In this document: positions 3,030 to 25,500 of the stretch, piece after piece
Layout of the letters: each line of letters opens with the position of its first letter
Numbering within the stretch: the stretch's first letter is position 1
Source: Eledone cirrhosa
Lineage: Eukaryota
Assembly: GCA_964016885.1 (NCBI GenBank)
Contig: OZ024744.1
Coordinates: 94,054,001-94,118,000, forward strand
DNA length: 64,000 nucleotides
Direction: 5' to 3'
Translations under genes and position numbers: made by a program
The notes under the pieces: model-generated
The model's database searches: none
The model's input: the letters and a program-made list of their open reading frames with translations, nothing else
What the model was told of the DNA's origin: nothing

Positions 3030-3306
3030 TGATGAAATACGTAGGATGTAGTCTAGAACAATTATAAAGAGAAAAAGGGGCTAGAGTATCTCTTAGCTGG
3101 AGTTCTTTAAGAGGATAATCCTCTTATATGCTAAGCAAACACACACCATAATGGACGTGTCTCTCATTGAAACATATCAACAACTTAACGATGTTTCTTG
3201 TGTAACCTTTGCTTAAATGCAAAATATTGTCTCATGAAACTATGCCTGCTTAAGTTAGGATTATGTAACAACACACTAGCATTATATATGTATATATGAT
3301 GGCAGG

Positions 3307-4081: not shown

Positions 4082-4204
4082 TCAAAATAAACATCTGAGA
4101 TGTCAAAACTTTTTTCTTCGTCATCATAAATTTCTTCTGATTCTGAAGAAGCTGTACTACCTTCAGCAGACGGTTGGTAGACTTCCATCCACGAATTGTA
4201 ATAC
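4082..4204 (-). CDS. EIF2AK4: GCN2-like eIF2-alpha kinase exon (subdomain IV and start of the kinase insert)
   Basis: tttcag|G..TTTTGA|gtaagt, 123 bp, phase 2-2. Translates (R)YYNSWMEVYQPSAEGSTASSESEEIYDDEEKSFDISDVYF, matching the eIF2a-kinase RYYN(A/S)W.E motif plus acidic insert. Confidence 0.88.
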
Positions 4205-4334
4205 CTGAAATAGTAAAGATTTTTTTATCACTAGCTTTATTTTCAACGCACTGATGCATATGTGTGTATGTGCATATGCATTTGGGTATGTGCATATGCG
4301 TACATTTATATGTATGAGTATATAAATATAAATG

Positions 4335-4757
4335 TGCAAACACAGACACACTCACAAAAATACACATTCAGACATACATTCACGCAAACACACATATACA
4401 TTCAGACACACACACATTCACACAGCACAGACACACGCATACATTCACACAGACACACACATACATTCTCACAACACATACGCATGCATACATTCAGACA
4501 CACACATACATTCACACAGACACACACATACATTCACACAGACTCACACTTACATTCACAGACACACACATACATTCACACAACACACACACACACACAT
4601 ACATTCACAGATGCACACATACATTCACACAACACATACACACATACATTCACTCACAACACATACACACATACATTCACACAACACATACACACATACA
4701 TTCACACAAACACATACACACATTCACACAAACACATACACACATACACACATACAC
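4335..4757. repeat. Compound (CA)/(CACATACATT) microsatellite
   Basis: Low-complexity CA-rich tract; explains the H/T-rich ORFs. Confidence 0.9.
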
Positions 4758-4974
4758 TGCATAACAAATGGAATGCCAGCCGCTATTTTGCTATAGCTTT
4801 TTAACCACCCCCTTCCTTTCTATTACACCCACATACATTCATGCAGGCGTAAAGAGAGAGGAGTAGTATGAGGTAGTCAAACTACTCCTCTCTCTTTATG
4901 TGTTGTGACAGTATCGCAGAAATTTATATAGAGATTTCTAATTGAAACACAGATGATAAATGAATATTATCAAA

Positions 4975-5061
4975 GGTATGACTGAATGGTTAAGGAGCTT
5001 GCTTCGTAATTATTAGATACCAGGTTCAATACCACTGTGTGACATCTTGATGAAATGTCAT
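4975..5061 (+). mobile_element. Degenerate tRNA-derived SINE head
   Basis: TGACTGAATGGTTAAG..GGTTCAATACCACTGTGTGACAT. Paralogous head at 5986-6075. Confidence 0.55.
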
Positions 5062-5962
5062 TTGAGTTAATTTCCTTCCCTTTACACCATTAATGGTTGT
5101 GATCCCACTCTGAGGTATCTTGGGCAAGTATCTTGAGTTACTTTTCCTTCCCTTTACACTATTAATGGCTGTGATCCCTCTATGTGGTGTCTTGGGCAAG
5201 TATCTTGAGTTACTTTTCCTTCCCTTTACACCATTAATGGTTGTGATCCCACTCTGAGGTATCTTGGGCAAGTATCTTGAGTTACTTTTCCTTCCCTTTA
5301 CACCATTAATGGTTGTGATCCCACTCTGAGGTATCTTGGGCAAGTATCTTGAGTTACTTTTCCTTCCCTTTACACCATTAATGACTGTGATCCCTCTATG
5401 CGGTGTCTTGGGCAAGTATCTTGAGTTACTTTACCTTCCCTTTACACCATTAATGACTGTGATCCCTCTATGCGGTGTCTTGGGCAAGTATCTTGAGTTA
5501 CTTTTCCTTCTCTTTACACCATTAATGGCTGTGATCCCTCTATGTGGTGTCTTGGGCAAGTATCTTGAGTTACTTTTCCTTCCCTTTACACCATTAATGG
5601 TTGTGATCCCACTCTGAGGTATCTTGGGCAAGTATCTTGAGTTACTTTTCCTTCCCTTTACACCATTAATGGTTGTGATCCCACTCTGAGGTATCTTGGG
5701 CAAGTATCTTGAGTTACTTTTCCTTCCCTTTACACCATTAATGACTGTGATCCCTCTATGCGGTGTCTTGGGCAAGTATCTTGAGTTACTTTTCCTTCCC
5801 TTTACACCATTAATGACTGTGATCCCTCTATGCGGTGTCTTGGGCAAGTATCTTGAGTTACTTTTCCTTCTCTTTACACCATTAATGGCTGTGATCCCTC
5901 TATGTGGTGTCTTGGGCAAGTATCTTGAGTTACTTTTCTTTCTCTTTACACCATTAATGGCT
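5062..5962. repeat. 72-bp minisatellite, ~12.5 copies, with 360-bp higher-order structure
   Basis: Unit CCATTAATGG(T/C)TGTGATCCC..TCTTGGGCAAGTATCTTGAGTTACTTTTCCTTCCCTTTACA. Variant order B-A-B-B-C-C-A-B-B-C-C-A. Confidence 0.95.
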
Positions 5963-5985
5963 GATAGCTTTACATGTAAATGTAA

Positions 5986-6165
5986 CATGGCTGAATGTTT
6001 TAGAGGTTCACTCTGCCATCATTAGGTCTCAGGTTCAATACCACTGTGTGACATTTTAGGCAAGTGTCATTTACCATAGCTTCAGGGGGACCCGTGTCAT
6101 TTACCATAGCTTCAGGTCAACCCATGTTTTGTGAGTGAAATTGGATTGATATGAAGGAGAACCAT
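5986..6165 (+). mobile_element. Degenerate tRNA-derived SINE
   Basis: TGGCTGAATGTT..GGTTCAATACC B-box followed by a CORE-like TTAGGCAAGTGTCATTT. Confidence 0.55.
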
Positions 6166-6204
6166 TATATATTCTTGAAAGTATTATAAAGAAATTTTCA
6201 ATAT

Positions 6205-6395
6205 TACAAGGGTCAGGCTGAAAAGAGACCAAGATACTCTCATGGAATGATTAAATGAGGTTTATTTTTCAATATAGTCCCTAGAAAAGCAAAATGCACT
6301 TATTAATAAGAGTTGAAATTAATGCATGCAAGATTTTACAGCTCTAGCATCACTCCTTCTTAGTCAGCCTATGAACTTTTCAGCCTACTCTTATA
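6205..6395. mobile_element. Mariner-like MITE
   Basis: Imperfect TIRs TACAAGGGTCAGGCTGAAAAG / CTTTTCAGCCTACTCTTATA with TA ends. Confidence 0.45.
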
Positions 6396-6744
6396 TTCAT
6401 TATTATTTATTTACGGGGTCGATAAAATAAAGTACCAGTAATGCACTGGATAATTGTGGCCTTGTGCCAAAAGTAGAAACAATTATTTATTTATCATTGT
6501 ACCAATGATTAAGAAATTCACTTCAGGTCCTGAGCCTGATCCTAACCCTAACTGTACGAGTAATTCAAAGGGCAAGCCTTGTTACACACAGTGTCAGGCT
6601 GAATCTCCCTGCCCTGAGAATTACATTAAGATCCATTCCAAACATATTGTATCTAAACTATAATAAAGTAAGGAGCGCGGGACTGCGTACGGTTTATAAT
6701 TTTTTATCCCATTAGTAAAATAAGTTGGATTACTTTGAATAAAT

Positions 6745-7150
6745 ATCATCATCATCATCATCATTGTTTAACGTCCATCTTCCACGCTAACATGGGTTTG
6801 GACGGAAATTTTCCCACTTGAGGCAAGATTGGTTGTCTTGCTCGTATAGGACTGTCTGGTGGGTTTTCTACGGCTGGATGCCCTTCTTAACACCAACCAC
6901 GTTTACAGTGTGGACTAGGAGGTTTTTACCGTGTTATCTACACGGCCACATTACAGTGTGGACTGTGTGTTTTTTTGTCGTGACACCTACACAACCTCAT
7001 TTATTTCGGACTGGATGTTGTGGTACCAACATAACTTTACATCGAAAGGGGTGGTGTGGATGGGGTCGGGGTAGTGGGATGGAGGTGTATTTTGGTAAGA
7101 GGTGCCTACTGACTGTAGGTTTCGCTTTGCACTTAGGCAAGGCGGGTCTT
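6745..7150 (-). mobile_element. 3'-terminal fragment of RTE family B (end of ORF, long 3' UTR, (GAT)n tail)
   Basis: Reverse complement of 7130-7150 (AAGACCCGCCTTGCCTAAGT) matches 63979-63998. Contains GTTAAGAAGGGCATCC and the RTE 3' end before (TCA)n. Confidence 0.8.
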
Positions 7151-7504
7151 GAATATTACATAATTTATCTACTAAATTTTGTGGCTGTTGATTAAATATA
7201 TCTTGTTTATTTAAAGATTCACTTCTTTAAAATTTCTGAAATGTCAACACTTCCAGTTGGCCATCGCTTAAATAAACATACTAATTTTCTCCTAATTCAG
7301 TTTATATATAATATCGTCTTTTTTTAATGTATCATGGATTACGTTACTGATTAAATAAGACAGGGTAACGCAACCTTCATTCAATTTCTATGTATTATAT
7401 ATTGTCAATTACGATTTTATTTGATGTATATACCTGCGTATAATATCAATATACACACTACACATGCTAGCAGAAAACCACCTGAAGGGTGGTTTTTCTG
7501 CTAG

Positions 7505-7980
7505 TATACATAAACAAGTTTGACGCTTGTGTGCAAAGTACAATGCTGCATGACAGTGAAAGATGGGCAGCGATTGCAGAGGACATGCGTAGACTGGAGA
7601 GAAATGAAACAACCACGCTTCATTGTAAATGTAAATGTGAGAGAAAGGCAGGACTTGGATAAACTAAGGGAGAAACTGGGTTTAAGAGGAATCTGAAGTG
7701 GTGTGTAGGAGAAAAGATTGCATTGGTACAGACATGTGATGCACATGGATGATGATCGCTGGGTGAAGGAGTGCCAGGAAATCCCAGTGGAAGGAAGCCG
7801 CAGTAGAGGTAAACCAAGAAAGTCCTGGGAAGAGGTGATGAGAGCTGATCTCAAATCACTGAGACTCACAGGGGTGATGATTAACAAAAGCGGTGAGTAG
7901 AAAGATACTGTGCCGAGAATGACCCATCTAACCCATGCAAGCATGGAAAAACAGATATAAAAACGTTTATGATGATGATG
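7505..7980 (+). mobile_element. 5'-truncated, decayed RTE LINE
   Basis: ORF 7718..7900 (HWYRHVMHMDDDRWVKECQEIPVEGSRSRGKPRKSW) and (GAT)n tail. Confidence 0.85.
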
Positions 7981-8085
7981 GAGTCATTTCAATTGACTAA
8001 ATCCCTCTAAGGCAGTGCTGTAGAATGACTGCAGTCTAATGCCTGAAACCATTATAAGGATAAGAGAATAAAAGAGTAGTAATAC

Positions 8086-8210
8086 CTGACAATATTTTCA
8101 TGGTTCAGTCGAGATAGTAGCTTCACTTCTGTTGTGATGTTCTTAAAATGTCTGATGTTTGAATGTATAATCTTAATAGCATAGTGTCTCATATCCATTT
8201 TGTTCTGTAC
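8086..8210 (-). CDS. EIF2AK4: GCN2-like eIF2-alpha kinase exon (subdomains II-IV)
   Basis: ttgcag|GTA..GTCAG|gtatt, 125 bp, phase 0-2. Translates VQNKMDMRHYAIKIIHSNIRHFKNITTEVKLLSRLNHENIVR, closely resembling GCN2 VQNKLDG..YAVKRI..EVTLLSRLHHENIVR. Confidence 0.92.
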
Positions 8211-8420
8211 CTGCAATAAATATATTTATTATTATTAGTATTATTAGTATAATCGAAGGATCAGTTCCAGAAAGCACTGTAAAGGTGTTATTGCATTCAA
8301 TGGAGATTATGTTTTGCAGAATAAATAAATTTTAGTTTCAATATGTTGTGCCATTTTCATTTAAAAAGTTTTTCTAAAGACTTTATTGCCACACCAAGTA
8401 TATATATATATATATATATA

Positions 8421-8690
8421 TAATGTATAATAAACAATACAATATAATTACCTCATTACCAGAGGTTTCCCGAATAAGACGAATACGAAAAACGTCCTCA
8501 TTCGTTCCGTCGGACAAGGCAATTTAAAACGAATGAGGACGTTTTTTGTATTTGTCTTATTCGGGAAACTTCTGGTAATGAGGTAATTATATTGTATTGT
8601 TTATTATACATTAAATTTTGCTCTGGTACTTACATAGAGCACTCTTCACTCCTATGACTTTTTCAATTTTCAACGGAAACTTCAATACAT
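8421..8690. mobile_element. PLE pLTR-like fragment with 86-bp fold-back and degenerate hammerhead, in a (TA)n tract
   Basis: Arms 8421-8506 and 8528-8613. Minus strand reads GCCTTGT-CCGACGG-stemII-GAAAC-CTCTG-GTA-ATGAGGT. Confidence 0.6.
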
Positions 8691-9034
8691 ATATATATAT
8701 ATAAATATATATATAAACAATTATATTTATGAAGTTTTGAGCAAATTATGAATTATTTTGAATGTATGTTAGCTTAAAGTAAACTGATTGAACACAGTTT
8801 TTTTTACTCTGGAAAAATAGTCTTTATAAGTTGAGCATAGAAAACCCTAGAGGTGCGAAAAAAGTGAACAGTGCTGCCTGTGAGACTTGAACTCACATCT
8901 GCCATATGCCGAACAGCTTTGCTACCTATTACACTAAAGCAGGCTGATCAAATTTTTCCTTGATTTTAAGCATTATCTAGATGTAAATAAATGGTTGTAT
9001 TTATAAAGCGTTGAGTGAATTATGAATTTTTAAT

Positions 9035-9035
<1 letters not shown>

Positions 9036-9065
<30 letters not shown>

Positions 9066-11860
9066 CCGTTTTTCGTCCGTTCTTCCATGCTAGCTTGGGT
9101 TAGACGGGTTGTCCTGTTGTGGGCAGTGTCTGGTCGGCTGACCATGCCTTGCTCATACAGGAACTGATTCTGGCTTGATTTCTACAGCTGGATGCCCTTC
9201 CTAACATCAACCTTATTTACAGTGAGTGCTGGGTGCTTTTTCCGTGGCGCCTCCACGACCACTTTACAGTGTGGGCTGGCTGCTTTTTTGCCGTGGCACC
9301 TCCACGACCACCTTGCAGTGAGAGGGTGTGGGGGCATATTGTCTATATGCTTCAGCTTGTACCCATGGGAGGTCGGGTACTCTGTATTACTGTGTGACGC
9401 CAGAGGTCACGGTCGCGTGTCATTGCCTTTGAGAGGTGTAATTGGGTAAGGTCGGCTTTTATCACCTCATCCCAGGTTTTCTTGGGTCTCTCCACTCCAC
9501 GGTTTCCATCAACTTCTAGTGCTCTGCACCTTTTTATGCAGCTGTCATCCTTCATACGCATCACATGTCCATACCAACGCAACCGCCTCTCCTGCACACA
9601 GCATTTGATTCCTCTTATGCTCAGTCTCTCTCTCAATTCATTTATGCTTTGTTGTTCGCATATATTACTATTACACATCCATCGGAGCATGCAGGCTTCG
9701 TTTCTTTCTAATCTACGTAAGTCTTCCACCTTCAGCGCCCAGGTCTCACTACCATGTAACATTGCTGTTCGGATACACGCATCATACGGTCTGCCTTTCA
9801 TTTTGAGGGAGAAGCCTTTTGCAGCTAGCAGTGGCAGTAGTTCCCTGAACTTCTTCCATCCCATTCTTACCCTAGTTATTGTACTTTCTGAACACCTACC
9901 TCCACAGCTAATTTGGTCACCTAGGTAGCAGAAGCTGTCTACTGTTTCTACAGAGCCCTCCCAGAGTTTGGTGGTACTTGATTCTTGTGGCTGTTTGCTG
10001 CTTGCTGTCCCAGCACAGCTGCTACATGTGAAGCCTACATTCTTAGTTAAGCTTCCTGAGATCCCGCTACATCTCTTGTGTAGAATGGAGTTCCTACATA
10101 CACCTTTCCTACATACTGAGCAAGGCCATTTCCCTGAGGCGATCTGGGTTCTGTCTTCTCGTCTACTTACAAGGACCTTAGTCTTTGTCATGTTGACTTT
10201 TAGACCCTTTCTTTCTAGTCCCTGCTTCCATGTTTGGAATTTCTTCTCTAGTTCTACCCTAGATTCAGCTATAAGTGTGAGGTCATCTGCATACAGGAGT
10301 TCCCATGGGCATCCGGTCTTAAACTCCTCTGTTATTGCCTGCAGGACTATGATGAACAGGGGAAGGCTAAGAACAGAGCCCTGGTTGACACCAACCTGTA
10401 CGCTAAATTCCTCGCTATACTCATTGTTAATCCTAACTTTGCTGACTTCTCCCCTATACATGGCTTGTAAACTTTCACAAGCCATTCATCTACTCCTAGT
10501 TTTCTAAGAGCCCACCAGATTACAGCACGTGGAACTCTGTCAAAGGCTTTCTCGAGATCGACGAATGCCAAGTAGAGTGGCTTTTACCTGACACAAACCC
10601 GAACTGTATTTCGTCTAGATCAATTCGCTCTCTGATTAGTTGCGCTATTACTTTTTCTGTGACCTTCATGACCTGGTCAATTAATTTAATGCCTCTATAG
10701 TTTCCCCTATCTAGGGCATCACCTTTACCCTTGTAGCAGTTAATGATGATGATGCTGCTACGCCAGTCCTTCGGAATGACCCCATTCTGTATGACTTGGT
10801 TTACTATCTGGGTGACCAAAGTGTGTCCCACCGTTCCAGATGCTTTCGGCAACTATTTCCGAAGGCCCGGCCGCCTTGCCCGTCTTCATGTCTTTGATTG
10901 CCTTACTTATTATACTACCTTCAACTTGCACTGCTGGTCCTTCTATTGGGTCAATGTGGGGGAGACTGTCTTTCTCCCAATTATTCTCCTCATTTAGTAG
11001 CCTTTCATAGTGACACTTCCAAGCTACCTTCTTATCAGCGTCAGTGATGGCAAGTACACCATCATCATTAAGTACACACTTCTCCCCGACAACATCAGCC
11101 ACAGGTTTCATCTGTCACCTTCAGCAGGTTCGCTTTCAGGAATTCCCACTGTTCCTTTATAGTGTACGACTCTAATTACTCTTCCTTACTATCAAAAGCA
11201 TCAAGTAATATGCTTTTAAATTTATGACTGACTGTGGCGTCCTTTAATTTCCATATTTTTCTCCTGAGGATAGTCCTCTTCTGTTGTCGAATACGTCTCG
11301 TCCTGACTATGAGGTCGCTAATTATGAGTCTATGTTGAGATGTGCATTCTTCATGGGGGAGGGATTTAGTGTTTACAACAGACACTCTGTCATGTCTTCT
11401 GGTAAGGATATAATCTACCTGGCTTGTGTGTTCCCCCGATCTATAGGTGATCAAGTGATTGTCTCATTTTTTGAAGTTAGTGTTACAGATAGTTAGGTTA
11501 TTTGCGTCACAGAATTCCAGCCTTCCTCATTTCTAGTACCAAACCCATAGCCTCCATGGATTCCGTCATAGCCGTCACAATGTTGTCCAACGTGACCATT
11601 TAGGTTGCCAGCAATAATTATATAGTCACTGTCGGTTATTTGGGAGGTAGTGAGCATCAGTGTCTCATAGAATCTGTCTTTTATAGTGCTGGGCAGTCCG
11701 GATTGGGGTGCGTACGCAGATATTACTGTCACCGTAGTTCTATTGAGGACAAGTCTTATTTTAATTATTCTGTCGTTCACTTTCTAAAAATGGATACCTT
11801 TCTTAATATCAACCAATTTACAGAGTGTACTGGGTGCATTTTATCATGGCACCAGCAAAC
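9036..11860 (-). mobile_element. RTE LINE family B, near full-length but frameshifted and internally deleted
   Basis: APE fragments (SAYAPQ, IAGNLNGHVG), RT (FVDLEKAFDRVPR, QGSVLS, LLYADD), RTE C-terminus, long 3' UTR and (GAT)n tail at 9036-9065. Confidence 0.9.
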
Positions 11861-11925
11861 AGGAAGTAAAACAACAATAACTGGAATTTCCTTTAAAATT
11901 ACTCAAAATAAAAAATAATTCTTAC

Positions 11926-12050
11926 TTTTATAACATTTCCAAAACCACCTTGTCCTAAGAATTCAATGACTTCAAATTCATTTTTAAACCGAGGAGTACT
12001 TAAAGCCCATCTATATTGTTGTTTTAATTCTTTTTCTTCATCTTGGCTAT
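11926..12050 (-). CDS. EIF2AK4: GCN2-like eIF2-alpha kinase exon (subdomain I glycine loop)
   Basis: atgtag|ATAG..ATAAAA|gtaag, 125 bp, phase 1-0. Translates SQDEEKELKQQYRWALSTPRFKNEFEVIEFLGQGGFGNVIK (compare GCN2 SRY..EFEEL..LGKGAFGAVIK). Confidence 0.92.
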
Positions 12051-12248
12051 CTACATGTTGAAAAGAAAAGAAACCAAAAATAAAACATACAAATTTTATC
12101 AGAATTTAACCCTTTTATTACTATATTTCTAATTAATTATTTTAAATTTTAATTAATTAATTAAGAATTTGTAAAGTATTTACTAAAATTATAATTTCAT
12201 TAAGGTAGTATTTATAAACATAATGTTCTTATATAAAATGACCATATA

Positions 12249-12448
12249 CCGTATATACTCAAATGTAAATCGAACCCACTCACCCCACCCACATTTTATG
12301 TCTGAGAAATAGGGGAATATCCAAACTCAGTTTAAAAACCCAAGCAGCTAATCAAAATATTGTTTAGATGATGTATATAAACCAATCTCCCATTTTGCCA
12401 TCGATTTTTTGGTAACATATTCCTCGGCTTATATTCCAGTATATACAG
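12249..12448. mobile_element. Tc1/mariner-superfamily (Tc2/pogo-like) MITE
   Basis: TA-flanked imperfect TIRs CCGTATATACTCAAATGTAAATCGA / TCGGCTTATATTCCAGTATATACAG. Confidence 0.6.
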
Positions 12449-12612
12449 TATGTTATATTCGAACATAGCTTACTAAAAGATTCTTGCGTAAAATCATGAC
12501 AAGAGTTATTTAGATAAATACTAGCAGAGGTACCCAGCGTTGCCCAGTATAACTCTCAATGGAGAAGTCGGTCAAATGAACCAAAAGACTTCCGTTAAAC
12601 ACGACTATAGAA

Positions 12613-12897
12613 GTAACAATTTATAGTTGGTGGCCCTGAAGAGGACCTTTGAACGTTTACTTTGAAATATCTCAGTGGCGGTGCTGCCAGCAAAGACGAC
12701 TCCGATGGTAACAATTTATAGTTGGTGGCCCTAAAAAGGACCTTTTAACATTCACTTTGAAATATCTCAGCGGCGGTGCTGCCAGCAAAGACGACTCCGA
12801 TGGTAACAATTTAAAGTTGGTGGCCCTGAAGAGGGCCTTGGATCGTTCACTCTTAAAAGTCTCAGTGGCAGAGCTGTCAGCAAAGATGACACCCATT
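12613..12897. repeat. Three 95-bp tandem units in the Helitron 3' region
   Basis: GTAACAATTTA.AGTTGGTGGCCCT starts at 12613, 12708 and 12803. Confidence 0.9.
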
Positions 12898-13281
12898 AGA
12901 GGTAGCCGCCCTTAAGAAGTCCTTAACACCACTTTGGTGTGTCGTATTTGCTTTGCTTGTTATTTGAGATTGTAACCTAGAAAAGCATGTCACAGTCGGT
13001 GGCCACAAAAACGCCCTTGGCAAGATCATGCTGGAATGTCAAAAAAATGTGTAAATAAGATGTAGGGGAAAGTAGATCAATTAGGTTAAAACTACGGAAC
13101 ATCGATAGCAAAGCGTAATAGCAACATATAAATGCGGAAAACGGAGACATTGAACATTTATAACGTATAGCAAAAGCAGCCTCAGAGGCGTATGTGGTAC
13201 AGCAAATGTAAGCACTTATACAGAAAAAAAAACAGCGATTACTTGTTGGCAGATGGGGTGCCTACATAACTTCTTTATAGA

Positions 13282-16200
13282 CTATATTTGGGTTTTCTCG
13301 CGAGTTGCAAAAGCAAATAGGTTATGTCGGCTCCCCACTCGAGAGCAGCCAACATATAGTTGACCATGGGAGAAGAACGGTTCTTCTAAATTAAGCCCTA
13401 CGACCGTCAGCGTCTGACCCTGTGATTTGTTAATCGACATGGCGAAACTGAGTCGGAGAGGGAATTGCAGCCTTCTGAATGTGAAAGGAATGTTTTTACC
13501 GGATGGAATGAGAGGTATCCTTGGTATGAAGACAGTATCCCCCTTACCACATCCTGTAAGTATTGTTGCCTCAATAACATGAGGCACTGCCTTTTGGACG
13601 ACCAGACGCGTGCTGTTTAAAAGCCTTCGGGGTTCCAAATTCCTGAGGAGCATGACAGGGACACCTTTCTTAAGTCGCAGTAAGTGTGATGGCAATCCGG
13701 GAGGGTCTAGGGAGTTAAGAAATTCTGTGGGGTAATTAACAACTTCGTCTGGATCAGCCATAGAATCAAGGGACTTGTAGACATGCAGGTTTCCAAGCAA
13801 GCACAGCATGAGCTGTTCATTGATGTTTCCAGCTATGTGGTTTTTTGAAGCCAATATTGCGCGTTCACACAACCACTCTTGATTTGTGTAGTTCTCCTCA
13901 AGATTAGGAAAATGAGACGTCCGTAACTCAGCAATTGACTTAATGCATCTACAAATCCCTGTGAGGTCCGCTGCACCATCTCCGTTGAGTGGGACTTTGC
14001 CATCTCCCAACGGCAAAATGGCAGCAGCAAAACCTGCTGATGTTTCATCACCTTGCAGTTGTGCTCTCATGTTTGTTGTAAGTGTCAGCTTTCTTACATA
14101 ACGCCAATGTGGGGATTCCTTAAGGGATTACAGCCAGAGTCTGTCGGAAGTCCCCAGATAACAGGAAAGTGACACCTCCCATTGGTTCTTGACAGTCCCT
14201 GATGCCTCTGAGTGACCGGTCTAATGCCTCGAAAGCCGCCTTGTGGGCCATTGTGCATTTGTCCCAAACAATTAGTAGGCAACGCTTTAACACCAGTGCT
14301 TTTCCAGAAGACTTGCTGATGTTGCACGTGGGTGTCTCAGATGATGCCACGTTGAGAGGAAGACTGAAGGCAGAATGGGCCGTCCTGCCACCAGGCAGCA
14401 AAGTTGCTGCAATGCCGGAAGAAGCCACGGCCAATGCGATGTTTCCATGTTGCCTCACTGCAGCGATTAAAAGTTGATTACAAATGTTTTGCCCGTGCCT
14501 CCAGGTGCCTCCAGGAAGAATATACCCCCCCCCCTCCCCGATTACGGATGGAATCAACAACAATGTTGTAGGCTTGTTTTTGATCCATTAGAAGTTTTGG
14601 TTCATTTTCTTCAACATATCTTTTGAGTTCATCGACATCATATGACGTTTCACGTATAATGTCGCTGGGAATGTCAGATGGCGCATCTCGATGTGCTTGC
14701 GGAAGCCCATATTTCTCCAAGACATCTCCACCCATTGAAGCCACTCTGTCTTCAATATCGATCAGAGCTCTGTTATATATAGCGTCTGAAAAGCCGACAT
14801 CTAAGTTTGGAGATTGCAATTGAGCGAGATGCCTATATTCGTCTGCGAAATTATCTTTAAACTTTTGCCATAAAGAGTAAGGATCGCTCAATTCACAGAC
14901 TTCAAGCAGGCTTCCCTGTACGTTCCGCAGATGTATCCATTGACCGTTCTCAGATGAGTGAAGGTGGTCGGCCCTCTCACCTCATGAAGCAGAAGTCGCA
15001 GGTAGAAGCATTCGTGTTGGGTAGGGTGGACCGTATAAACTCGCCCAAGGCAATAGTCGAATTTGATGCCTGGATATCCAACCACCTCTTGCCCTACCTT
15101 CCATCGTAGCCATTTTGTCTGATTCCATGTATAGTAAGACGGTATTTCAGAATACAGCAGAGTTCGAGCGAAGTTGTCGTGTTGACAAAGATTGAAAAAA
15201 GCAGTGAGTGTAGTTTCCTTTGGTGAGATCGCTAGCTGAGCAGCTGTTGCATCGTTGAAATACACCCGTTGACCGTTTTCAAGGTGAATGGCAAGTTAAT
15301 GACGGGGTGTCGTTGGTGCAGTGGGAAGCCAAAAAGGCTCCAAAAGGCTTCATTGCTGCTAATGTATCGGCCTGCTTGGTAGTCAGATACCTCGTCTCTA
15401 CTGTTTTCATGACGAAGACCAAAGACGGCAGCATCCAATCCCTTGTTTATGTACTTACAAACGTATTTAATTGATTTTACTGAGTTTCATAATTCGACGT
15501 TTATATGGGCGTTGAACGCTTTCAAGAGGAGGGGGCAATATGGCACTATACAGCTGTTGTTGAATTCGCGTTCGCCAACCTTTGCTGTGAACCCACCGTC
15601 TTCAGGTCTCCTGCACCTATACAATGGATATCTGTCACCGCCAGTCTGTGTTTCCTGTAAAAACGGCCTGGGATATCATTTTGTACACTTTCCATCGTGT
15701 ATGCACGGGGACGTCATATTGAGTCCATGTCCGCAAGGACCATGGACCATGTTTGATTGACTATAGAGAAGAGGTCCTGGTCAATCTACGGATCAGGTAG
15801 TTCGGCAGAAATGAATTTGTCGATGTAGTTTGAACTGATTTTTGTAACCAACCAAATCAAGATATGGGCATGCGGCAGCCCTCGTTTCTGCCATTCAACC
15901 GTGTACATGTCGCACCTGACAGGCCTAAAAACCTCTCTTTTCTTTAATAAATCAATTAATTTGGATAATTTCAGGCGAAACACTCATAGTGCTGTCTCAG
16001 TGCTTTAGAATGATATTTGTCTTGTTGTGCTGTTCACCACAAATAACTGCAGCAATCTCATTGCATGTTGGTGTGTTGAACCGACCAGCATGTTCTCCAG
16101 ATGGCCTTCGGTCAGCATGTATGACCACACTAAAGTTTGGGTTGGTAGCTGTTTCCAAAGCGTACTTGAAACTACGAACATAGCTGTTTTTGTCATGAAG

Positions 16201-16640
16201 CATTTTTTGAAGTTTTATTATGGTTTCAATGTTGGTTTCGGACGAAATAGAGTTTCTCATCTCTGCCTGCTCCTGATAGTTTCCAACGAAGTATAACTGA
16301 AGAAATTGAGGATCCTTTTCTGCCAGAGGCTGAATAGACCCAATCAAGTGTAGATCTGCCCCTGGACCTTGAAAGTTGGCATGAACCCACGTTCCGAGGC
16401 AAGCTTTGCTCCAAAGGATGTCATCTGAAACGCGGAATTGTAGCGGTGGATATTACGCAGAAACTTCCTCTGCTCTTGCAGCTGCGCTCTGCACAGCATT
16501 CTGTGAGAGCCTGATCGCAGTCGCATTTACATCTTCGGTGAAACGCCTTCGTTTAGACCTTCTTGCATCATTAAATAATCGACCAATGAAAGTTCCTTTC
16601 TTGTGGGGGGCATTGTTTTTAGAAAATTGACCAAGGAGAA
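13282..16640 (-). pseudogene. Helitron Rep-helicase pseudogene
   Basis: Fragments with EWQKRGLPHAHIL (HUH), ASSGIAATLLPGGRTAHS, GDFRQ, QFPLRLSFAMSINKSQGQT and HGQLYVGCSRV. Many stops and frameshifts. Confidence 0.92.
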
Positions 16641-18556
16641 CGATAAATAGTGGACAAATAGCGTTTAAGTAAGCAAATCTAAACACGGATATAAATTGTG
16701 GAAAAATGTGATAAATCTATGTCAGAAAAAGTGGGTATGTTTTGCAAGATTTTGTGTACCAGTCAAATTTCAGGTATTAATTTAGGGGCAATGCAGCGTA
16801 CGGACTACCTGTGATAAAGGAAATTAAATAGTGTGGCTACAGTAGTAGGTATATAAGTGTCAGTATGTTGGTTCAGTTAGAACATAGCAATAAGTAAGTA
16901 CTGATCATTGAAAGGATACAGGCAAAAATGACCGAAAAATCACAGCATGATAAACTGGAACCTTATGACCATAAACACATTAACTAAACCTCCTTTAAGG
17001 TGACAAATGTTGAAGAAGCATGCGTTTCAGAAACATGGGGTAGCTTATGAGAGTACGCATGTAAAGAAACCTACCACTTGTCAGAAGCCAAAAAAGAAGT
17101 GTGATCCTAGGTCAGACTTGACCGATATAAATAGGAGTGATTTCGCTCAATGAACAACACTCGAGTTGTCTGATTGCTGAGATAATACAAATAAGTGTGA
17201 TGAAATCTACTGAACACAACTCACTGATGTGTGGTTGGCCAGAGGTCACCATTTCGCACTTACTTGAGGTGCAATTAAATGGGGGAGACAACCGGGTGCA
17301 AAAACTAATCAATCATTTGCACAGTTTAGGCATGAGTGTGAAATAGCACAATCCACATAGAGATGGCGTTAAAATTTACACCTGGGTTAAATCGCGCTTT
17401 CTTGGTTAGGAGAGTGAAATGACGCCAAAGTTCGAGGAAAAGAATTTAACTCCCCGTTCCACACTTAATTGTGGTGCAATTACACGGGGGAGACAACCGG
17501 GTGCAAAATTAAATTCAATCATCCTAAAGTTAACTAAACAAACTAAAGTTAAGTCAGAGGGATTTAAAAATTCGCTACTCCATTTGTAGAACATGAGTAA
17601 CCAATGCATCAACTTTCGTTTAAATTGACTTTTATTTCCAGAAGTTGAAATGCTTTGCTGCAACCATAATATGAACTTTAAAAGTGGTCCAAAGGGGCTC
17701 ACTGCCCTCCCTAGGGGGTTCCCTTGCAAAATTCAAGTGATAACCATTTTGTTTAGTTTTTGTAAAAATCAAGTATAAACTCCCGAGGTTATGGTGCTTT
17801 TTTTTATTGTGGCAGTTGGAGCTTTTATAGGTTAATGAACTGGGCTCATTGTCCCCGAGAGGGTCCTCTTGCTGAATTGAAATGAAAGTAAATGTGCCTC
17901 ACTGTATCTTCATCTGTAGTACATGAATAACAACTAAGTCGAAACTCATTTTATTGGACTACCAATTATGGAAGCTATGACGCTTTGCTGCATTACAATA
18001 GCCAAATTCAATAAATGACTCGCTGGGGCCCACTGCCACCTGGGGGGGGGGGGGGGGGGGGGGGGCTTGTTCCAGGTATAGACGTCTTATGTCTATATAT
18101 GTCTTCAACATCATCTTTAGACAATGGGTAACCAATATGTCCGGTAAAGTTAAAATCAAACGTAAACTTCAAAAGTTATCAGGTACTAATACAGTGTTAA
18201 TATGAACTTCAATAGATAAGTCAAAGGGGCTTAGTGCCCCCCCCCCCCGTGTCCCCTTCCTTTATAAGCTATGGGTAACCAATACATCTCGCTTCGTGAA
18301 ACCCAAACACCAACTCAAGCAGGTATGACGTTTTGTTGCATTAATGATATCAACTTCAACAATCCTCAAGTCGGTTTACTGCCCCCCAAGGGGTCCCCCC
18401 CCCCCTACCTGAATTTCTGCGAAAGTTTATTTGTAGGCCATAAGATAACAAAAGATTAATTTTGGTGAAGATGAGAGGCAAACTGCAGGAATTATGGGGC
18501 CTTTATGTAGTAGTACTGCTGACTCCAAGCAAGAGGCTTAAGGGGGTTATCCGCCC

Positions 18557-18591
<35 letters not shown>

Positions 18592-18741
18592 CCACACAAT
18601 CGATGTACGGAAAAATAAAATAGCCTACGACGCATAATAGGACTTCAGAAACCTATGTATGAAATTTGGTGCAAATCGGTTGTAAAATGTAGAAATGCAT
18701 GCGGTTACACAGACAGACATCTTCTGTTTTATATATATTGG

Positions 18742-19350
18742 CTAGCAGAATGGCCCGGCGTTGTTCGAGATTTGCTCTAGGGTTCTTATATATTTGATAT
18801 ATATTTATCCTTATCGAGTCTCGTGAAATAAATAGGTTTGTTTATATTTTGTGTATGCAAAAATATCTGTACACAAATATATAATTATATATATATATTA
18901 AAATAACAGATTAAAGTTTAATCAAAGAATCGCTGCTTTCACCCTTAACGGGATCTTCTGAAACTAAAAAAATCAATCTGTGAACGCAGAAGTAAATATT
19001 TCGAAAAACGTTACACACTATATATATACACACACTATATATACATATATACACACACATATAGCGTCATAATGTCGTAATACAGTCAGCCAGACATACA
19101 GACAGATATTATAAGGGCGCAACTTTATATCTATGTATCTATCTAAAAAGAAAGACTAAGAATTATAGAGAGAGATCGCTAAATAGCCTAATTTGGTCCC
19201 TAGGACATAGAAAATTTGAAAATTTGAAAATTTGTTCAAAAACACTCACACGACCATAAGTATTACATGTGTTAAGTTTGAAAACAATCGATTGCGTGAT
19301 TCTCAAGTTTTAGGGAGTCAGACAGACATTCTCTGTTTTAGATATATAGA
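18742..19350 (-). mobile_element. Short non-autonomous Helitron abutting the 5' end of copy 2
   Basis: CTAG at 18742 with a degenerate CCCGGCGTTG hairpin. 5' A|TCTATATATCTAAAACAGAGAATGTCTGTC at 19350. Confidence 0.75.
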
Positions 19351-19889
19351 TAAACACTTTAACATTTTCATAACCATATTTGGAGGGATTTAGTAATATA
19401 AGTAACTTTCTCTTTATTAAGCTGGTATTTGGAACATATCTTAACAAAGTTCCTGTCAAAATTTTATAAATTAAGACAGGAAGTTTTTAGATAAAAATAA
19501 AAGGGTCTTGTAGCCCAGCACCAGGGACAGTTTCAGTGGTTTGGTATCAAAAGAAGCTGTCCATCAATCCCATACCCCTGCAGAACTTTCCACATCAACT
19601 CCCATGGAATGTGGTCATATACCATTTTGTGGTCTACAAAACAAGCATATGCCACTTAGTAATACTTCCACGATTTCACAACCTGCTGCAGTGTGAATAT
19701 TTGATTGGCTGTGCTGCATCCAAGGTGAAAACCACACTATTCATCAGCCAGCTTGACTCAACAATATCCCTACATCTCTTTGCCAGACATTTAACATAGA
19801 CTTTACTAGAGATCTAATCTAATCTAATCTGGCCGAGTTTACACTCACAAATAAAAAGAACCAGGACCGCCCCTAGGAGCATTGGATTT

Positions 19890-20220
19890 GGTGTACTTCA
19901 TATTTGTTTCTGTTGCTGAATACAATCAGGGGTCACTGCTTCTCCTGAAGGTCAATAGTTCTCTTCTAACTCAATCGGGAGTGCCTTTCCATTGTCAATT
20001 TGCAGTGATCATCTGCAAAGCCACATTGTTCTCAGAACCACTACACCAGTCTGTCGATGCGTGCAGCTGGAACTACTGCCAACCATTGATTTGGCAGGAT
20101 TGCAACTCATTTCTACAGCTGAGTAAACTGGAGCAACGTGAAATGAAGTGTCTTGCTTAAGGACACAACACATCACCCGATTGCAAGCCCAATGCTCTAA
20201 CCACTAAGCCATGCGCCTTC
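19890..20220 (-). mobile_element. tRNA/CORE-like SINE
   Basis: Minus strand GGCGCATGGCTTAGTGGTTAGAGC head and CCTTAAGCAAGACACTTCATTTCACGTTGCTCCAG core. Confidence 0.7.
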
Positions 20221-20720
20221 CCCTTTTTTAATGAGGAGATCGCTCTATAATTGTAACAATCTCTCTTGTCTCTCTTTTTGAAAAGGGCTTTTAATATCTT
20301 GGAATGAATTTCGTCCTCCTCAGAAGGCTTGCCACATTTGAGCTATTTAATTGTTCTTGTGACCTCAGCCTTAGAGAGGTTAGTCCTCACTTCCAGAAGC
20401 ACCTCATGTACTTCAGAAGATGCAACTGTGACCATAAATAAGACCACCAAAACACTGTACTATGGCCAGAAACAATAAAGGCATCCACACCACATTGTCC
20501 TTTGCATGTGATAACAAGGGATGCATTCAAGCCTGTTCGAAAAACATATTGCCATCCCCATCTAACGGTGCAAGAACTGTGACCTGTTCTGGGAGGTATG
20601 AGATGGACACACATAGGTTACGTATGCCAAAACCTCAGAAAGGATCTGGAAGGGAGCAAACCTTGACAATTGGTAACTCTAAATAAACTAGAGGCAGAAA
20701 AAAAAAACATAAATTCTTAC

Positions 20721-20746
20721 CTGAGTCTTGAAATATATGAGATTTA
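20721..20746 (-). CDS. EIF2AK4: 26-bp microexon of the GCN2-like gene
   Basis: ttttctttttctaattgcag|TAAATCTCATATATTTCAAGACTCAG|gtaaga, phase 2-1. Exactly bridges the phases of the flanking exons; reads KSHIFQDS. Confidence 0.72.
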
Positions 20747-20925
20747 CTGCAATTAGAAAAAGAAAATTTCATTAAAAATTTTTAATATGATAATTTTTAT
20801 AGAATAGTCTAATTCAAAAATAAAATATACTCAAATGTTAACAGCAGCTTTACTAGTGGACAGCTCAATATTTTGCCAATTTTCACCAACTTCAAATTCT
20901 ATGTAAATGAGGTTCTAAAATATTT

Positions 20926-22386
20926 TTACTTTGGAGGTTTATATTACACCAGTTTCACTTTGGAGGTGTATATTACATCAGTTTCACTTTGGAGGGGAAC
21001 ATTACACCAGTTTCACTTTGGAGGTGTATATTACATCAGTTTCACTTTGGAGGGGAACATTACACCAGTTTCACTTTGGAGGGGAACATTACACCAGTTT
21101 CACTTTGGAGGTGTATATTACATCAGTTTCACTTTGGAGGGGAACATTACACCAGTTTCACTTTGGAGGGGAACATTACACCAGTTTCACTTTGGAGGTG
21201 TATATTACATCAGTTTCACTTTGGAGGGGAACATTACACCAGTTTCACTTTGGAGGGGAACATTACACCAGTTTCACTTTGGAGGTGTATATTACATCAG
21301 TTTCACTTTGGAGGGGAACATTACACCAGTTTCACTTTGGAGGGGAACATTACATCAGTTTCACTTTGGAGGGGAACATTACACCAGTTTCACTTTGGAG
21401 GTGTATATTACATCAGTTTCACTTTGGAGGGGAACATTACACCAGTTTCACTTTGGAGGTGTATATTACACCAGTTTCACTTTGGAGGTGTATATTACAC
21501 CAGTTTCACTTTGGAGGGGAACATTACACCAGTTTCACTTTGGAGGGGAACATTACACCAGTTTCACTTTGGAGGTGTATATTACATCAGTTTCACTTTG
21601 GAGGGGAACATTACACCAGTTTCACTTTGGAGGTGTATATTACATCAGTTTCACTTTGGAGGGGAACATTACACCAGTTTCACTTTGGAGGTGTATATTA
21701 CACCAGTTTCACTTTGGAGGTGTATATTACATCAGTTTCACTTTGGAGGGGAACATTACACCAGTTTCACTTTGGAGGTGTATATTACATCAGTTTCACT
21801 TTGGAGGGGAACATTACACCAGTTTCACTTTGGAGGTGTATATTACATCAGTTTCACTTTGGAGGGGAACATTACACCAGTTTCACTTTGGAGGGGAACA
21901 TTACATCAGTTTCACTTTGGAGGTGTATATTACATCAGTTTCACTTTGGAGGTGTATATTACACCAGTTTCACTTTGGAGGTGTATATTACACCAGTTTC
22001 ACTTTGGAGGTGTATATTACATCAGTTTCACTTTGAGGGGAATATTACACCAGTTTCACTTTGGAGGTGTATATTACACCAGTTTCACTTTGGAGGTGTA
22101 TATTACACCAGTTTCACTTTGGAGGGGAACATTACACCAGTTTCACTTTGGAGGGGAACATTACATCAGTTTCACTTTGGAGGTGTATATTACACCAGTT
22201 TCACTTTGGAGGTGTATATTACACCAGTTTCACTTTGGAGGTGTATATTACATCAGTTTCACTTTGAGGGGAATATTACACCAGTTTTACTTTGAGGGGA
22301 ATATTACACCAGTTTTACTTTGGGGGGGAATATTACATCAGTTTCACTTTGGAGGGGAACATTACACCAGTTTTACTTTGGAGGTG
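20926..22386. repeat. 29-bp minisatellite, ~50 copies
   Basis: CAGTTTCACTTTGGAGG(GGAAC/TGTAT)ATTACA(C/T), contiguous with no spacers. Confidence 0.97.
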
Positions 22387-23190
22387 GAATTTGTTTTTCA
22401 AGTTTTGAATGAATACGGCCTTCAAAACGGTCAGGGATTGATAAAAAAATCATTACATAATGGAGTTGTGAAACATAAACTATACTATAAATGATAATTA
22501 AAACATTTTAAATATCAAAATATTAAAACTTTATAAATATATTCTCCATTCATGAGAATTTCAAAACCAAAGCATTTAAACCTTGCCTCGGCTTCTAAAT
22601 CGAGTTTGGATTTTTGCCCAAAGCGTATATGTAGTGTTTTATTTAATGTTTAATTTTTATACACATTGTTTGGCTTTCCAATCATCTACGTTTTTATTGT
22701 ATGTAAACTTCCCCCTTTGTATTTGTCCCCTTCTTTTGTGCCCCTGTGGCTAATAAAGAAATATATCTATATACTACTAAAACTCTGTGATTGTGTGCTT
22801 GTCTGCAATTTAATACAGCAAAAATGGCACATAATGGGAAAATACTTTGAAAAGAAGTTGCTCCTGAAATGGGAACACAAATGGAATAAAACAAGTTACG
22901 CGTAAATTGGGGGCACGGGTTCCCGAGATACAGGGTTCTTCTGGGTACCTTCATAAACAGAGAAAGGGAAAGATAGAGAGAAAGAGATAGTGGTTGTGAG
23001 AAAGTAGATTGAAAGAGAGACATAGAGAGAGAGATATGAGACAGAGAAGGAAAATGAAAGAGAGAGAGCTGTAAAAATTATTTTTAAGTGAACATGATTT
23101 TAAAAAATATATTTTTAAGTGAACATGACCCAATGGGTCACGGGTATAATTTAAAACTATTATAAAAAAACAATTTTAATCCATACATAC

Positions 23191-23273
23191 TTTTTTCTAT
23201 CTTCTTTTATTTTATCTTCGCTCTGTACCAACAATTTATCATCCTCCATATTTAGCTTCGTTTGTGCTTCAGG
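23191..23273 (-). CDS. EIF2AK4: Charged-linker exon of the GCN2-like gene
   Basis: gattttag|CCT..AAAA|gtatgt, 83 bp, phase 0-2. Translates PEAQTKLNMEDDKLLVQSEDKIKEDRK. Confidence 0.7.
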
Positions 23274-23309
23274 CTAAAATCAAAAGAAAGAAGAATAATA
23301 TATTGATAT

Positions 23310-23458
23310 AATATAAATTTAAATAATTTTGAAAACCATACAATGCATTAGAAAATTAAAGATGCTGAGATAACAATAAGGTAAAAGTCTATTGTTTTCT
23401 CAGCACCTTTAATTTTCTAATGCATTGTATGGTTTTCAAAATTATTTAAATTTATATT
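23310..23458. repeat. Fold-back inverted repeat (~61-bp arms, 27-bp spacer)
   Basis: AATATAAATTTAAATAATTTTGAAAACCATACAATGCATTAG.. and its reverse complement at 23398-23458. Confidence 0.9.
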
Positions 23459-23639
23459 TCCTATTCAACAACGCTTCAAGCAAACACTCTGTTATTGATA
23501 TAATGTCTTACTGTACTGTATGGTAGTAACGTTCATAACAAATTAATAACAATATTAGCAAGATGTACTGAAAATTCATAAAATTCATAAAATCTGTGTA
23601 ATTCAATTCTGTCTTATTCAACTGGCACGCAGCTGGATA

Positions 23640-24290
23640 ATGGTTGCCTGCATACGGGAGTTTCACTGAGGCTCGGACTCCGGATCTGTGAGCCACACAA
23701 ATGTCACTGTGGATCCACCATAGAATCTTTCAGCCTCCACCCGCTTTCCTGTTGCTACAGTGTCAGCCACCTTCCACACCATGCTGTTCTCAAAGAGGCC
23801 ATAGAGCATGGCTTGAAGGCTGCAGGTTTTCCCTCTCAGCTCGAGCCAGTGAGGCTGGACCAAGGGGATGACAAACCGCCAGATGGCATGACCATCTTCC
23901 CGTTCCGCGATGGTAAACCTATTGTCTGGAATGCCACATGCAGTGACACACTCTCCAGTGGCAACCTGGTGCAGTCTGCGACTAACCAAGGCATTGCTGC
24001 ACTTCATGCTGAAGAGAGCAAACTCTCCAAGTATTGGTCGCTCTCCAACAGGTTTGCAGTCGAGCCCCTAGCAGTGGAGACTTCTGGTGTCCTTGGCCAT
24101 AGGGCCACCTCCCTACTCATAACCATAAGCGCAGAGTTGGCTACCCGCAGGTGTGAGCCTCGCAAGCTGGAATGCCTTTTCCAGCACATCTCCCTCACCT
24201 TCCTCCGGGTAAATGCCTTCTCTATTCTGCCTGCCGGGCCCATGGGGCAGCCAGCGCGTAGGACCTCATTTAACTCATAATAGTGAGAGA
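23640..24290 (+). mobile_element. 3' fragment of a CRE-clade non-LTR retrotransposon (zinc finger plus restriction-like endonuclease)
   Basis: HKCHCG..H..SC zinc finger, then LEP..D.KPPDGMT..P..G..VWNAT..DT..AE.SK..KY..F..PLAVETSG..G..FQHISL..RVNA, the characteristic CRE C-terminus. Confidence 0.8.
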
Positions 24291-24409
24291 TCGGGAGATC
24301 GGGAGATAGTGAGGCAATGAGAATGGGAGTTTGGTTCCTCGGTGTTCGAACCAATTTATCACTAGTTAGAATAGTGACCTTTTTTTGCTAACTATATATT
24401 ATTATTATT

Positions 24410-24595
24410 TTGGCAGTATCGGTAGAGGGTCGGACACCATGCTTTGCAGCATAGAGTTACGGCACATTATATTCTGAGTTCAAATCCCGCCGAGGTTAAC
24501 TTTGCCTTTCATCCTTACGGGGGTCGATAAAATAAAGTACCAGTAATACACTGGGATAATTGCTGGCCTTGTGCCAAAAGTAGAAACAATTATTA
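24410..24595 (+). mobile_element. tRNA-derived SINE
   Basis: A/B boxes, body TTTGCCTTTCATCCTTACGGGGGTCGATAAAATAAAGTACCAG and the same tail as 3307-3418 and 6414-6490. Confidence 0.8.
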
Positions 24596-24884
24596 TTGTT
24601 GTTGTTGTAGTTGCTACGAGTGGAGGGAAGCTGTGGTGGAAATGACCCAGCCAACACATGCAAGCATGAAAAAAAACCAGGCGTTAAATGATGATGGTGT
24701 TGTTGATGATGTTGTTGTAGCTTATTCGGGTGATTATCTACCAACCTAATATTATTTCTCTCTAATAATAAAACTACATGTCTTTTTTAATATATTCTGA
24801 GTATGTATAATGTGCATAAATATGTGTAAGTATTTGTATGAAAGGATGTCTATCTGTATATGTATGTGTGTGTATCTAGTGTCT

Positions 24885-25160
24885 AAGTCTAAAGCCTGTC
24901 TCAAGTCCAGAAACTCACCAGGCCAGTGTTTATCCCAGTTTCCATGGCGTTAAGCAACTGAGTGTACAATACCCACCCCTGGACAGGATGCCAGTCCATC
25001 GCAGCGATTTCTGATACTCATTTTCAGTTGAGTATACAGGAGCAACATGAAATGAAGTGTTTTGCTCAAGAACACAACACACTACCCAGTCCAGGAATTG
25101 AACTCACAACATTATGGTCATAAGTCCAACACCCTTACCACTAGGCCATGTGCTTCCATG
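24885..25160 (-). mobile_element. tRNA/CORE-like SINE
   Basis: Minus strand GCACATGGCCTAGTGGTAAGG..GAGTTCAATTCC..CTTGAGCAAAACACTTCATTTCATGTTGCTCC. Confidence 0.75.
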
Positions 25161-25437
25161 CGTGTGTATGTGCATGTGTATATGTGTATGTATGTGCCTA
25201 CATGTATATGTGTGTAGTATGTGTAAGTGTATGTGCATGTGTGTATGAGTGTCTGTCTGTCTTTATCGCATGTGTGTGAGTGTATCTATGTATGTGAGTG
25301 TGTGTGTAATGTATGCATTGCTACATACACATCCACCTGATATACATTCTTTACCAAGTCTTATTTATTCTCAAGATATTTAAATAAACCAATTTAAATA
25401 AAATGAAGGAAATATACAAATGAAATCAAAATTTTAC

Positions 25438-25500
25438 CTCGTTTATTTGCTTTATGATATCATTTTTTCGTTTTTTCACTTTATCTTCGAGAATTTTATT
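25438..25500 (-). CDS. EIF2AK4: Charged-linker exon of the GCN2-like gene
   Basis: tttttttctttttaag|AAT..GAG|gtaaa, 63 bp, phase 0-0. Translates NKILEDKVKKRKNDIIKQINE. Confidence 0.68.

Follow-up and report, generated by a model that had tools for sequence, protein, structure and literature searches.

Can a GCN2 kinase lose its pseudokinase, and what would then be left of its activation? The question is raised by a stretch of 64,000 nucleotides (nt) from Eledone cirrhosa (contig OZ024744.1, positions 94,054,001 to 94,118,000, forward strand), called the window in the following, in which six exons lead from the charged linker of a GCN2 gene into its catalytic domain. Canonical GCN2 (EIF2AK4; human PDB 8t7t, Saccharomyces cerevisiae Gcn2 PDB 9f58) is built from an RWD domain, a charged linker, a kinase domain split by an insert, a HisRS-like domain and a C-terminal domain. 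The cephalopod form keeps this order, yet it is about 330 amino acids (aa) shorter between RWD and kinase, and the pseudokinase is absent. We put at roughly 0.8 the probability that this short form is the single GCN2 orthologue of coleoid cephalopods, and from its sequence relatives we regard one loss of the pseudokinase in the coleoid ancestor as quite probable.

The pseudokinase is treated as essential in yeast and as important in human cells. It is described in yeast as a positive allosteric element that is dispensable for catalysis, dimerisation and GCN1 binding (PMC4014428). In human cells its dimer interface is reported to support ATF4 induction (PMC12867742), and in vitro the human pseudokinase is reported to be mostly dispensable for activation by ribosomes (PMC6421407). 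Both its role and the true activator, tRNA or ribosome, are treated as open in current papers (PMC12867742; preprint 10.64898/2026.09.09.750423). The cephalopod gene itself is already known in databases, where it is annotated as GCN2-like by name only. In a literature search that left subscription journals and book chapters outside its scope, we found no paper on pseudokinase-less GCN2 in cephalopods or other animals.

A segment of GCN2 in the Eledone window

The segment can be read alongside four cephalopod proteins: those of Octopus vulgaris (P0004, 1201 aa), Argonauta hians (P0005, 1207 aa) and Sepia pharaonis (P0006, 995 aa), and a cuttlefish-like Logan protein (P0007, 1204 aa). The first two are database entries named 'eIF-2-alpha kinase GCN2-like' and the third is named EIF2AK4; all three appear to be direct orthologues of the window gene with the same short architecture. 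As a witness of the full architecture the Sepia entry was set aside and kept for motifs only, as part of its linker and kinase is absent and its C-terminus is foreign, probably through a gene-model error. The six exons are listed 5' to 3' along the gene, with the aligned residues of the Octopus vulgaris protein.

25438..25500, minus strand: exon 1, end of the charged linker after the RWD domain; 63 nt, phase 0-0, aa 168-188, 18/21 identical
23191..23273, minus strand: exon 2, linker, with AG and GT splice sites; 83 nt, phase 0-2, aa 190-218, 14/28 identical
20721..20746, minus strand: exon 3, linker, at the site of the pseudokinase in other molluscs; 26 nt, phase 2-1, aa 219-226, 4/8 identical
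11926..12050, minus strand: exon 4, end of the linker, RFxxEF helix and Gly-rich loop of the kinase; 125 nt, phase 1-0, aa 227-269, 37/42 identical
8086..8210, minus strand: exon 5, beta3 Lys (YAIK), alphaC Glu and HENIVR; 125 nt, phase 0-2, aa 270-311, 38/42 identical
4082..4204, minus strand: exon 6, beta4 and the start of a shortened acidic kinase insert; 123 nt, phase 2-2, aa 312-351, 35/40 identical

Inspection of the sequence finds an AG acceptor and a GT donor at each exon, and splicing in silico gives 181 codons free of stops. The 26-nt exon 3 was accepted because the frame between exons 2 and 4 requires it. The joined peptide aligns with aa 168-351 of the Octopus vulgaris protein at 79% identity over 184 columns (E-value 3e-94) and shows no large gap; its identity is 61% to the Argonauta hians protein and 41% to the Logan protein, values that indicate an octopod by similarity. 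A preliminary description of this DNA had proposed six minus-strand GT-AG exons with these phases, and the splice sites, the open codons and the colinearity with Octopus all bear it out. So does the distance to the catalytic domain, which it had put within about 80 aa of the charged linker: the kinase starts 77 residues past the start of exon 1. Its assignment of the gene as GCN2-like is likewise upheld by the four cephalopod proteins, whose continuous architecture is the same. A query with exon 5 returned four matches, all GCN2-like, and these are the same four proteins; the protein of the window gene itself did not turn up.

The Gly loop, the beta3 Lys and the alphaC Glu are present in the window exons. 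Identity to Octopus vulgaris is 88-90% in the kinase exons as opposed to 50% in linker exons 2 and 3, and this exon-wise conservation is, as far as sequence can tell, the pattern of a maintained gene. In exon 6 the translation passes from NSW to DVYF, and the APP..SVEWS segment is missing. Profile searches detected no RWD exons in the 38.5 kb upstream inside the window, and no exons of the kinase C-lobe in the 4 kb downstream inside it; the window contains only the middle portion of the gene.

A separate observation concerns the upstream part of the window. At 56321-58800 a 310-bp tandem unit flips strand near 57655, with arms of >1.1 kb that are 100% complementary. This may be a fold-back read or a misjoin, which could explain the RWD exons missing upstream in the window.

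Loss of the pseudokinase and the identity of the gene

Where, then, is the pseudokinase? Pfam assigns to all four cephalopod proteins an RWD domain, a single split kinase domain and a HisRS-like domain (PF13393), in that order, and no pseudokinase. The RWD domain of Octopus vulgaris covers aa 13-123, and the match of exon 1 starts 45 residues past its end. An alternative that the preliminary description had held in reserve, a pseudokinase further upstream with these exons as part of a long linker, is thereby ruled out in the relatives. The post-RWD motif and the Gly loop of the kinase lie 126 aa apart in Octopus vulgaris and 138 aa apart in the Logan protein, against 419-502 aa (median 458) in 116 other GCN2s. 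This spacing could be parsed for 119 of 120 proteins. The exception is Argonauta hians, whose RWD-kinase spacing was judged equal by profile (101 against 102 aa). When the Octopus protein is compared with solved structures GCN2 comes first, with human GCN2 as the best match (E-value 7e-170) ahead of PERK, HRI and PKR, and the human pseudokinase region has no counterpart in it beyond weak cross-similarity to the kinase.

In the window, a six-frame search with a pseudokinase profile from 22 lophotrochozoan proteins gave as its sole match the true kinase exon 5 (E-value 0.004), and in the introns between 12051 and 25437 there was no match to the pseudokinase profile under an E-value of 9. A profile of the kinase N-lobe recovered exons 4, 5 and 6. 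Together with the gap-free colinearity with Octopus, these searches agree with the preliminary description, which had seen no pseudokinase exons in the intervening introns filled with transposable elements. As a check of power, 40-aa pseudokinase pieces from distant GCN2s were spiked in, and 29/48 were recovered at E<0.05; for the two most divergent proteins the recovery was 1/6 pieces each. A block of ordinary pseudokinase exons could therefore hardly be missed, although a very divergent block might escape.

The Logan protein adds a different kind of evidence. It is an uninterrupted frame of 1204 aa, 88-97% identical to the Sepia pharaonis protein, on contigs of at most 4186 nt, and therefore it presumably represents a spliced cuttlefish transcript. 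It is from this relative only that transcript-level support for the short form would come. Could the short form still be an annotation artefact, with the pseudokinase exons hidden in introns or left unassembled? Highly divergent short exons are of the kind that can escape, as illustrated by exon 1, which reached only an E-value of 10 with an RWD-linker profile, and the junctions in the window are without read support. Against this, four independent proteins share the short form, one of them on a transcript-sized contig, the colinearity is free of gaps, and a pseudokinase signal is absent at a power of 60% per piece. We consider the artefact extremely improbable.

Chiton, gastropod and bivalve GCN2s have a pseudokinase, which is therefore ancestral for molluscs. 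In LG+C20 trees the cephalopod GCN2s are monophyletic (100). They nest within Lophotrochozoa (98, 99) and, there, within Mollusca (90, 87), where they stand apart from the gastropods plus bivalves. Their branch is about fourfold longer than those of other molluscs, with a root-to-tip distance of about 2.2 as compared to about 0.5 for chiton or abalone. No long GCN2 with a cephalopod name was found among the best 120 of 1062 matches to the Octopus vulgaris protein, a search in which 7999 candidates were scored, or among all 73 matches to the abalone pseudokinase. Of nine nameless matches from the latter search, two grouped with bivalves, six with arthropods and one with fish, and of 141 further long or truncated proteins none had a cephalopod best match. 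These protein searches turned up no GCN2 of Nautilus, and the loss can therefore be dated only to 'coleoid or earlier cephalopod'.

The short gene is thus placed at the cephalopod position, with no long cephalopod GCN2 beside it in the protein searches. The preliminary description had suggested that it may be a divergent paralogue or isoform; these results do not favour that view, and the gene is probably an orthologue after a coleoid loss. Of the kinase phylogeny and copy count that had been proposed as a check, the former fits the species tree; the copy number rests on protein collections, with no genome searched.

Several points weigh against reading the short form as the sole orthologue. 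The search with the abalone pseudokinase is leaky, as it found 6/10 named long mollusc GCN2s with the query counted. The placement within molluscs has supports of 87-90, which come from the Shimodaira-Hasegawa-like approximate likelihood ratio test only, on a long branch of deviant composition. FastTree united the cephalopods with three other long-branch proteins, P0225, P0226 and P0292 (93). A duplication within the cephalopod stem predicts the identical tree, and the junctions and copy number in Eledone cirrhosa are read across from relatives. The FastTree grouping was set aside as likely long-branch attraction, as LG+C20 undid it for the two proteins retested; P0292, outside that retest, has best BLAST matches that are not cephalopod.

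The rival that draws on these points is a fast-evolving paralogue beside a full-length GCN2 that the protein collections have missed. A fourfold branch and the erosion of residues for sensing are typical of a gene freed by duplication, the protein searches are incomplete and a genome-level view is lacking. Yet three species with annotated proteomes yielded only the short form, other mollusc long forms score high enough to be listed, so that a cephalopod one would be expected likewise, and no nameless long protein groups with the cephalopod clade. We hold a paralogue to be unlikely, and continue with a single orthologue that lost its pseudokinase.

How could such a loss have come about? Variant names in clinical papers show that human EIF2AK4 is interrupted by introns ahead of c.744 (phase 2) and of c.860 (phase 1), and these match the phases 2-1 of exon 3. 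The match is compatible with a frame-preserving deletion of an exon block, which we offer as a suggestion.

Sensing residues, kinase insert and activation

The loss of a regulatory domain leads to the question how the remaining domains have changed. In the literature, yeast Y1119/R1120 and human F1143/R1144 are reported as required if GCN2 is to bind tRNA and to be activated by ribosomes and the P-stalk (PMC11363354; PMC6421407), and the human F1143L/R1144L mutant is reported to lose tRNA binding and P-stalk activation (PMC6421407; preprint 10.64898/2026.09.09.750423). The substitutions R1325A and D1327A are described as abolishing the function of yeast Gcn2 (PMC4335047). Deletion of human residues 695-723 is reported to give high constitutive activity (preprint 10.64898/2026.09.09.750423).

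The Arg of HisRS motif 2 (human R1144, yeast R1120) is found in 167/169 long animal GCN2s; in the four cephalopod proteins it is replaced by H, Y, I and I. It is kept in all 10 of the other short or spacer-bearing proteins checked. The two octopods have N and S in place of the Arg of the HisB motif GGRYD, which is present in 166/169 long animal GCN2s; the cuttlefish forms keep GGRFD. In Octopus vulgaris an Ala stands in place of the GGRYD Asp as well.

The kinase insert has also been reshaped. In three cephalopod relatives it comprises 69-77 aa, of which 39-40% are D/E, and is thereby about half as long as in long forms, where the median is 148 aa. Past the NSW motif, 159/168 long forms have a Trp, as opposed to 0/3 cephalopod forms. 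By alignment, with the numbering offset of one verified at the residues of motif 2, the missing segment corresponds to human GCN2 695-723, and the sequences of window exon 6 and of the three relatives contain no equivalent of it. An AlphaFold2 model of the Octopus protein shows a canonical kinase fold (predicted template modelling score 0.75); the insert is disordered in it and likewise in a Haliotis control, so that the loop strand is unseen in both.

The catalytic core is kept. The catalytic motifs, including HRD and DFG, and both activation-loop Thr (T899/T904 equivalents) are found in the cephalopod relatives, as in canonical GCN2. An Arg and an acidic residue aligned to yeast R594 and D598, which we take to have a role in the kinase dimer, are kept as well. 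The HisRS-like domain retains its full length, its H/W interface residues and a number of conserved Glu and Arg positions.

What would a kinase of this kind respond to? Cephalopod GCN2 is proposed to be a partly de-repressed eIF2-alpha kinase, less dependent on the sensing of uncharged tRNA and the ribosomal P-stalk than yeast or human GCN2, and we see this proposal as evenly balanced. Two positive inputs, the pseudokinase and HisRS motif 2, would have been lost. The loss of a brake, namely the auto-repressive loop segment, together with a very divergent C-terminal domain, would then compensate. The controls likely to remain would be recruitment to GCN1 on ribosomes through the RWD domain and the binding of substrate to the acidic insert. 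The preliminary description had already considered a different activation logic, and the motif-2 Arg and the loop segment may be counted as two added sequence arguments for that idea.

There is also a more far-reaching version, to which we give only tentative credence. In it, coleoids would have rebuilt their sole GCN2 as a sensor-stripped kinase with the pseudokinase gone, motif 2 broken and the auto-repressive loop deleted. If true, the coleoid stress response would not read uncharged tRNA or stalled ribosomes as yeast and mammals do, and one might speculate about a joint remodelling of translation with massive adenosine-to-inosine (A-to-I) recoding and the octopus rRNA break. GCN2 goes unmentioned in the available text of a preprint about the octopus ribosome (PMC13321053).

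Other observations count against a changed activation. The residues of the HisRS domain were read in relatives, outside the window. Human GCN2 without the pseudokinase is reported to be still activated by ribosomes, and therefore the loss of the pseudokinase alone needs no new logic. The loop segment varies among long forms, with 9/168 lacking the Trp and a chiton insert of 89 aa, and its auto-repressive role comes from one preprint. Erosion is seen in all domains: cephalopods compared with other molluscs reach 34-38% identity in the RWD domain and 53-56% in the C-lobe, as opposed to 51% and 72% among molluscs.

These points lead to the main rival, in which the same loss has left regulation ordinary: the pseudokinase would be dispensable, and compensating changes would let stalled ribosomes or uncharged tRNA still activate the kinase by way of the HisRS-like domain. 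The ribosome activation reported for human constructs without the pseudokinase (PMC6421407) fits this view, as do the full-length HisRS-like domain with its retained residues, the GGRFD of the cuttlefish forms, the existence of other short GCN2s with motif 2 intact, and a divergence that is spread over all domains and not confined to the sensing ones. It is harder to reconcile with the motif-2 Arg, for which the four cephalopod proteins show three different substitutes against near-complete conservation elsewhere, given what is reported of the F1143L/R1144L mutant, or with Octopus vulgaris carrying N and A at those two positions of HisB where Ala is reported to abolish yeast function (PMC4335047). 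We regard ordinary regulation as somewhat unlikely.

Could the gene simply be decaying under relaxed selection, with a minor role in stress signalling? Divergence is fast in all domains, and octopod and cuttlefish proteins share only 41% identity across the HisRS-like core and 27% across the C-terminal domain. However, the window frame is open with intact splice sites, the kinase exons are far better conserved than linker exons 2 and 3, the catalytic motifs and the activation-loop Thr are found in all four proteins, and Octopus and Argonauta share 70-87% identity in each domain. Decay appears very unlikely.

For a maintained cephalopod GCN2, the interest lies in the combination. Engineered human GCN2 without the pseudokinase or without 695-723 has been described with single changes assayed, whereas the natural cephalopod proteins combine both with the change in motif 2. 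A natural deletion across an animal lineage, joined by the loss of the motif-2 Arg and of the putative auto-repressive segment, would offer a ready-made test of models of GCN2 activation, for which GCN2 from bivalves or snails and the short arthropod-like forms that keep motif 2 could serve as natural controls. Nutrient-stress signalling in cephalopods could then, if all this is true, not be assumed from mammals.

Other short GCN2s and further features of the window

Plant GCN2 is not known to have a pseudokinase, and the short architecture is, by sequence comparison, not unique to cephalopods. Among 150 best representatives, RWD and pseudokinase occur together in 98; of the two, only the pseudokinase is found in 20, only the RWD in 14 and neither in 15, and the other 3 lack the kinase N-lobe. 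Three of these 14 (P0265, P0279, P0319) were dropped for spacers of 245-524 aa. The remaining 11 comprise two cephalopod, three arthropod-like, two singleton and four non-animal-looking proteins (P0241, P0254, P0293, P0322). The singletons P0213 and P0218 are lone short proteins beside long relatives, which may be mispredictions, and were not counted as lineage losses. A divergent clade of P0194, P0200 and P0210, also lacking the pseudokinase, is sister to insects (99). Its union with cephalopods is rejected by the approximately unbiased (AU) test (p-AU 0.0004), and the pseudokinase was therefore lost at least twice in animals. The arthropod-like and non-animal short GCN2s resemble the cephalopod form in a linker of 76-152 aa from RWD to kinase and in the missing pseudokinase; they differ from it in the motif-2 Arg and GGR(Y/F)D, which all of them retain. 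In PMC12867742 and PMC5851622 there are only allusions to pseudokinase-less forms. As an aside from the mollusc set, the oyster GCN2 entries P0129 and P0131 (about 2170 aa) also carry the photolyase/cryptochrome domains PF00875 and PF03441, which indicates either a fusion or a merged gene model.

The introns of the window gene and its surroundings contain the following repeats and frames, including long interspersed nuclear elements (LINEs).

20924..22390, strand not assigned: 29-bp tandem array of about 51 copies, filling most of intron 2
13282..16452, minus strand: decayed PIF1-helicase frames in intron 3 (PF05970, E-value 5e-37; PF21530, E-value 2e-15), outside the gene product
9352..10485, minus strand: decayed LINE reverse-transcriptase frame in intron 4 (PF00078, E-value 6e-13)
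34311-35240 and 51939-54405, plus strand: AT-rich frames of 309, 257 and 562 aa, no Pfam match
37401-40472, minus strand: LINE frame of 1023 aa that looks intact, matching endonuclease, reverse transcriptase and PHD finger
61733-63859, plus strand: LINE frame of 708 aa, matching endonuclease, reverse transcriptase and PHD finger

By eye we take the AT-rich frames to resemble Penelope-like retroelements, and the PIF1 frames of intron 3 are presumably part of a Helitron-like element. Two related copies of this PIF1-bearing element, at 1-3100 and about 12500-19350, lie in two introns of GCN2. In intron 5, on the strand opposite to the gene, 18 codons at 6153-6206 (plus strand) are 72% identical to aa 756-773 within the Octopus vulgaris protein's HisRS-like domain. 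Their score of 28.9 bits is borderline next to 28.5 bits when the window is reversed and a maximum of 28.1 over 60 shuffles, and the match is either due to chance or a small inverted exon fragment.

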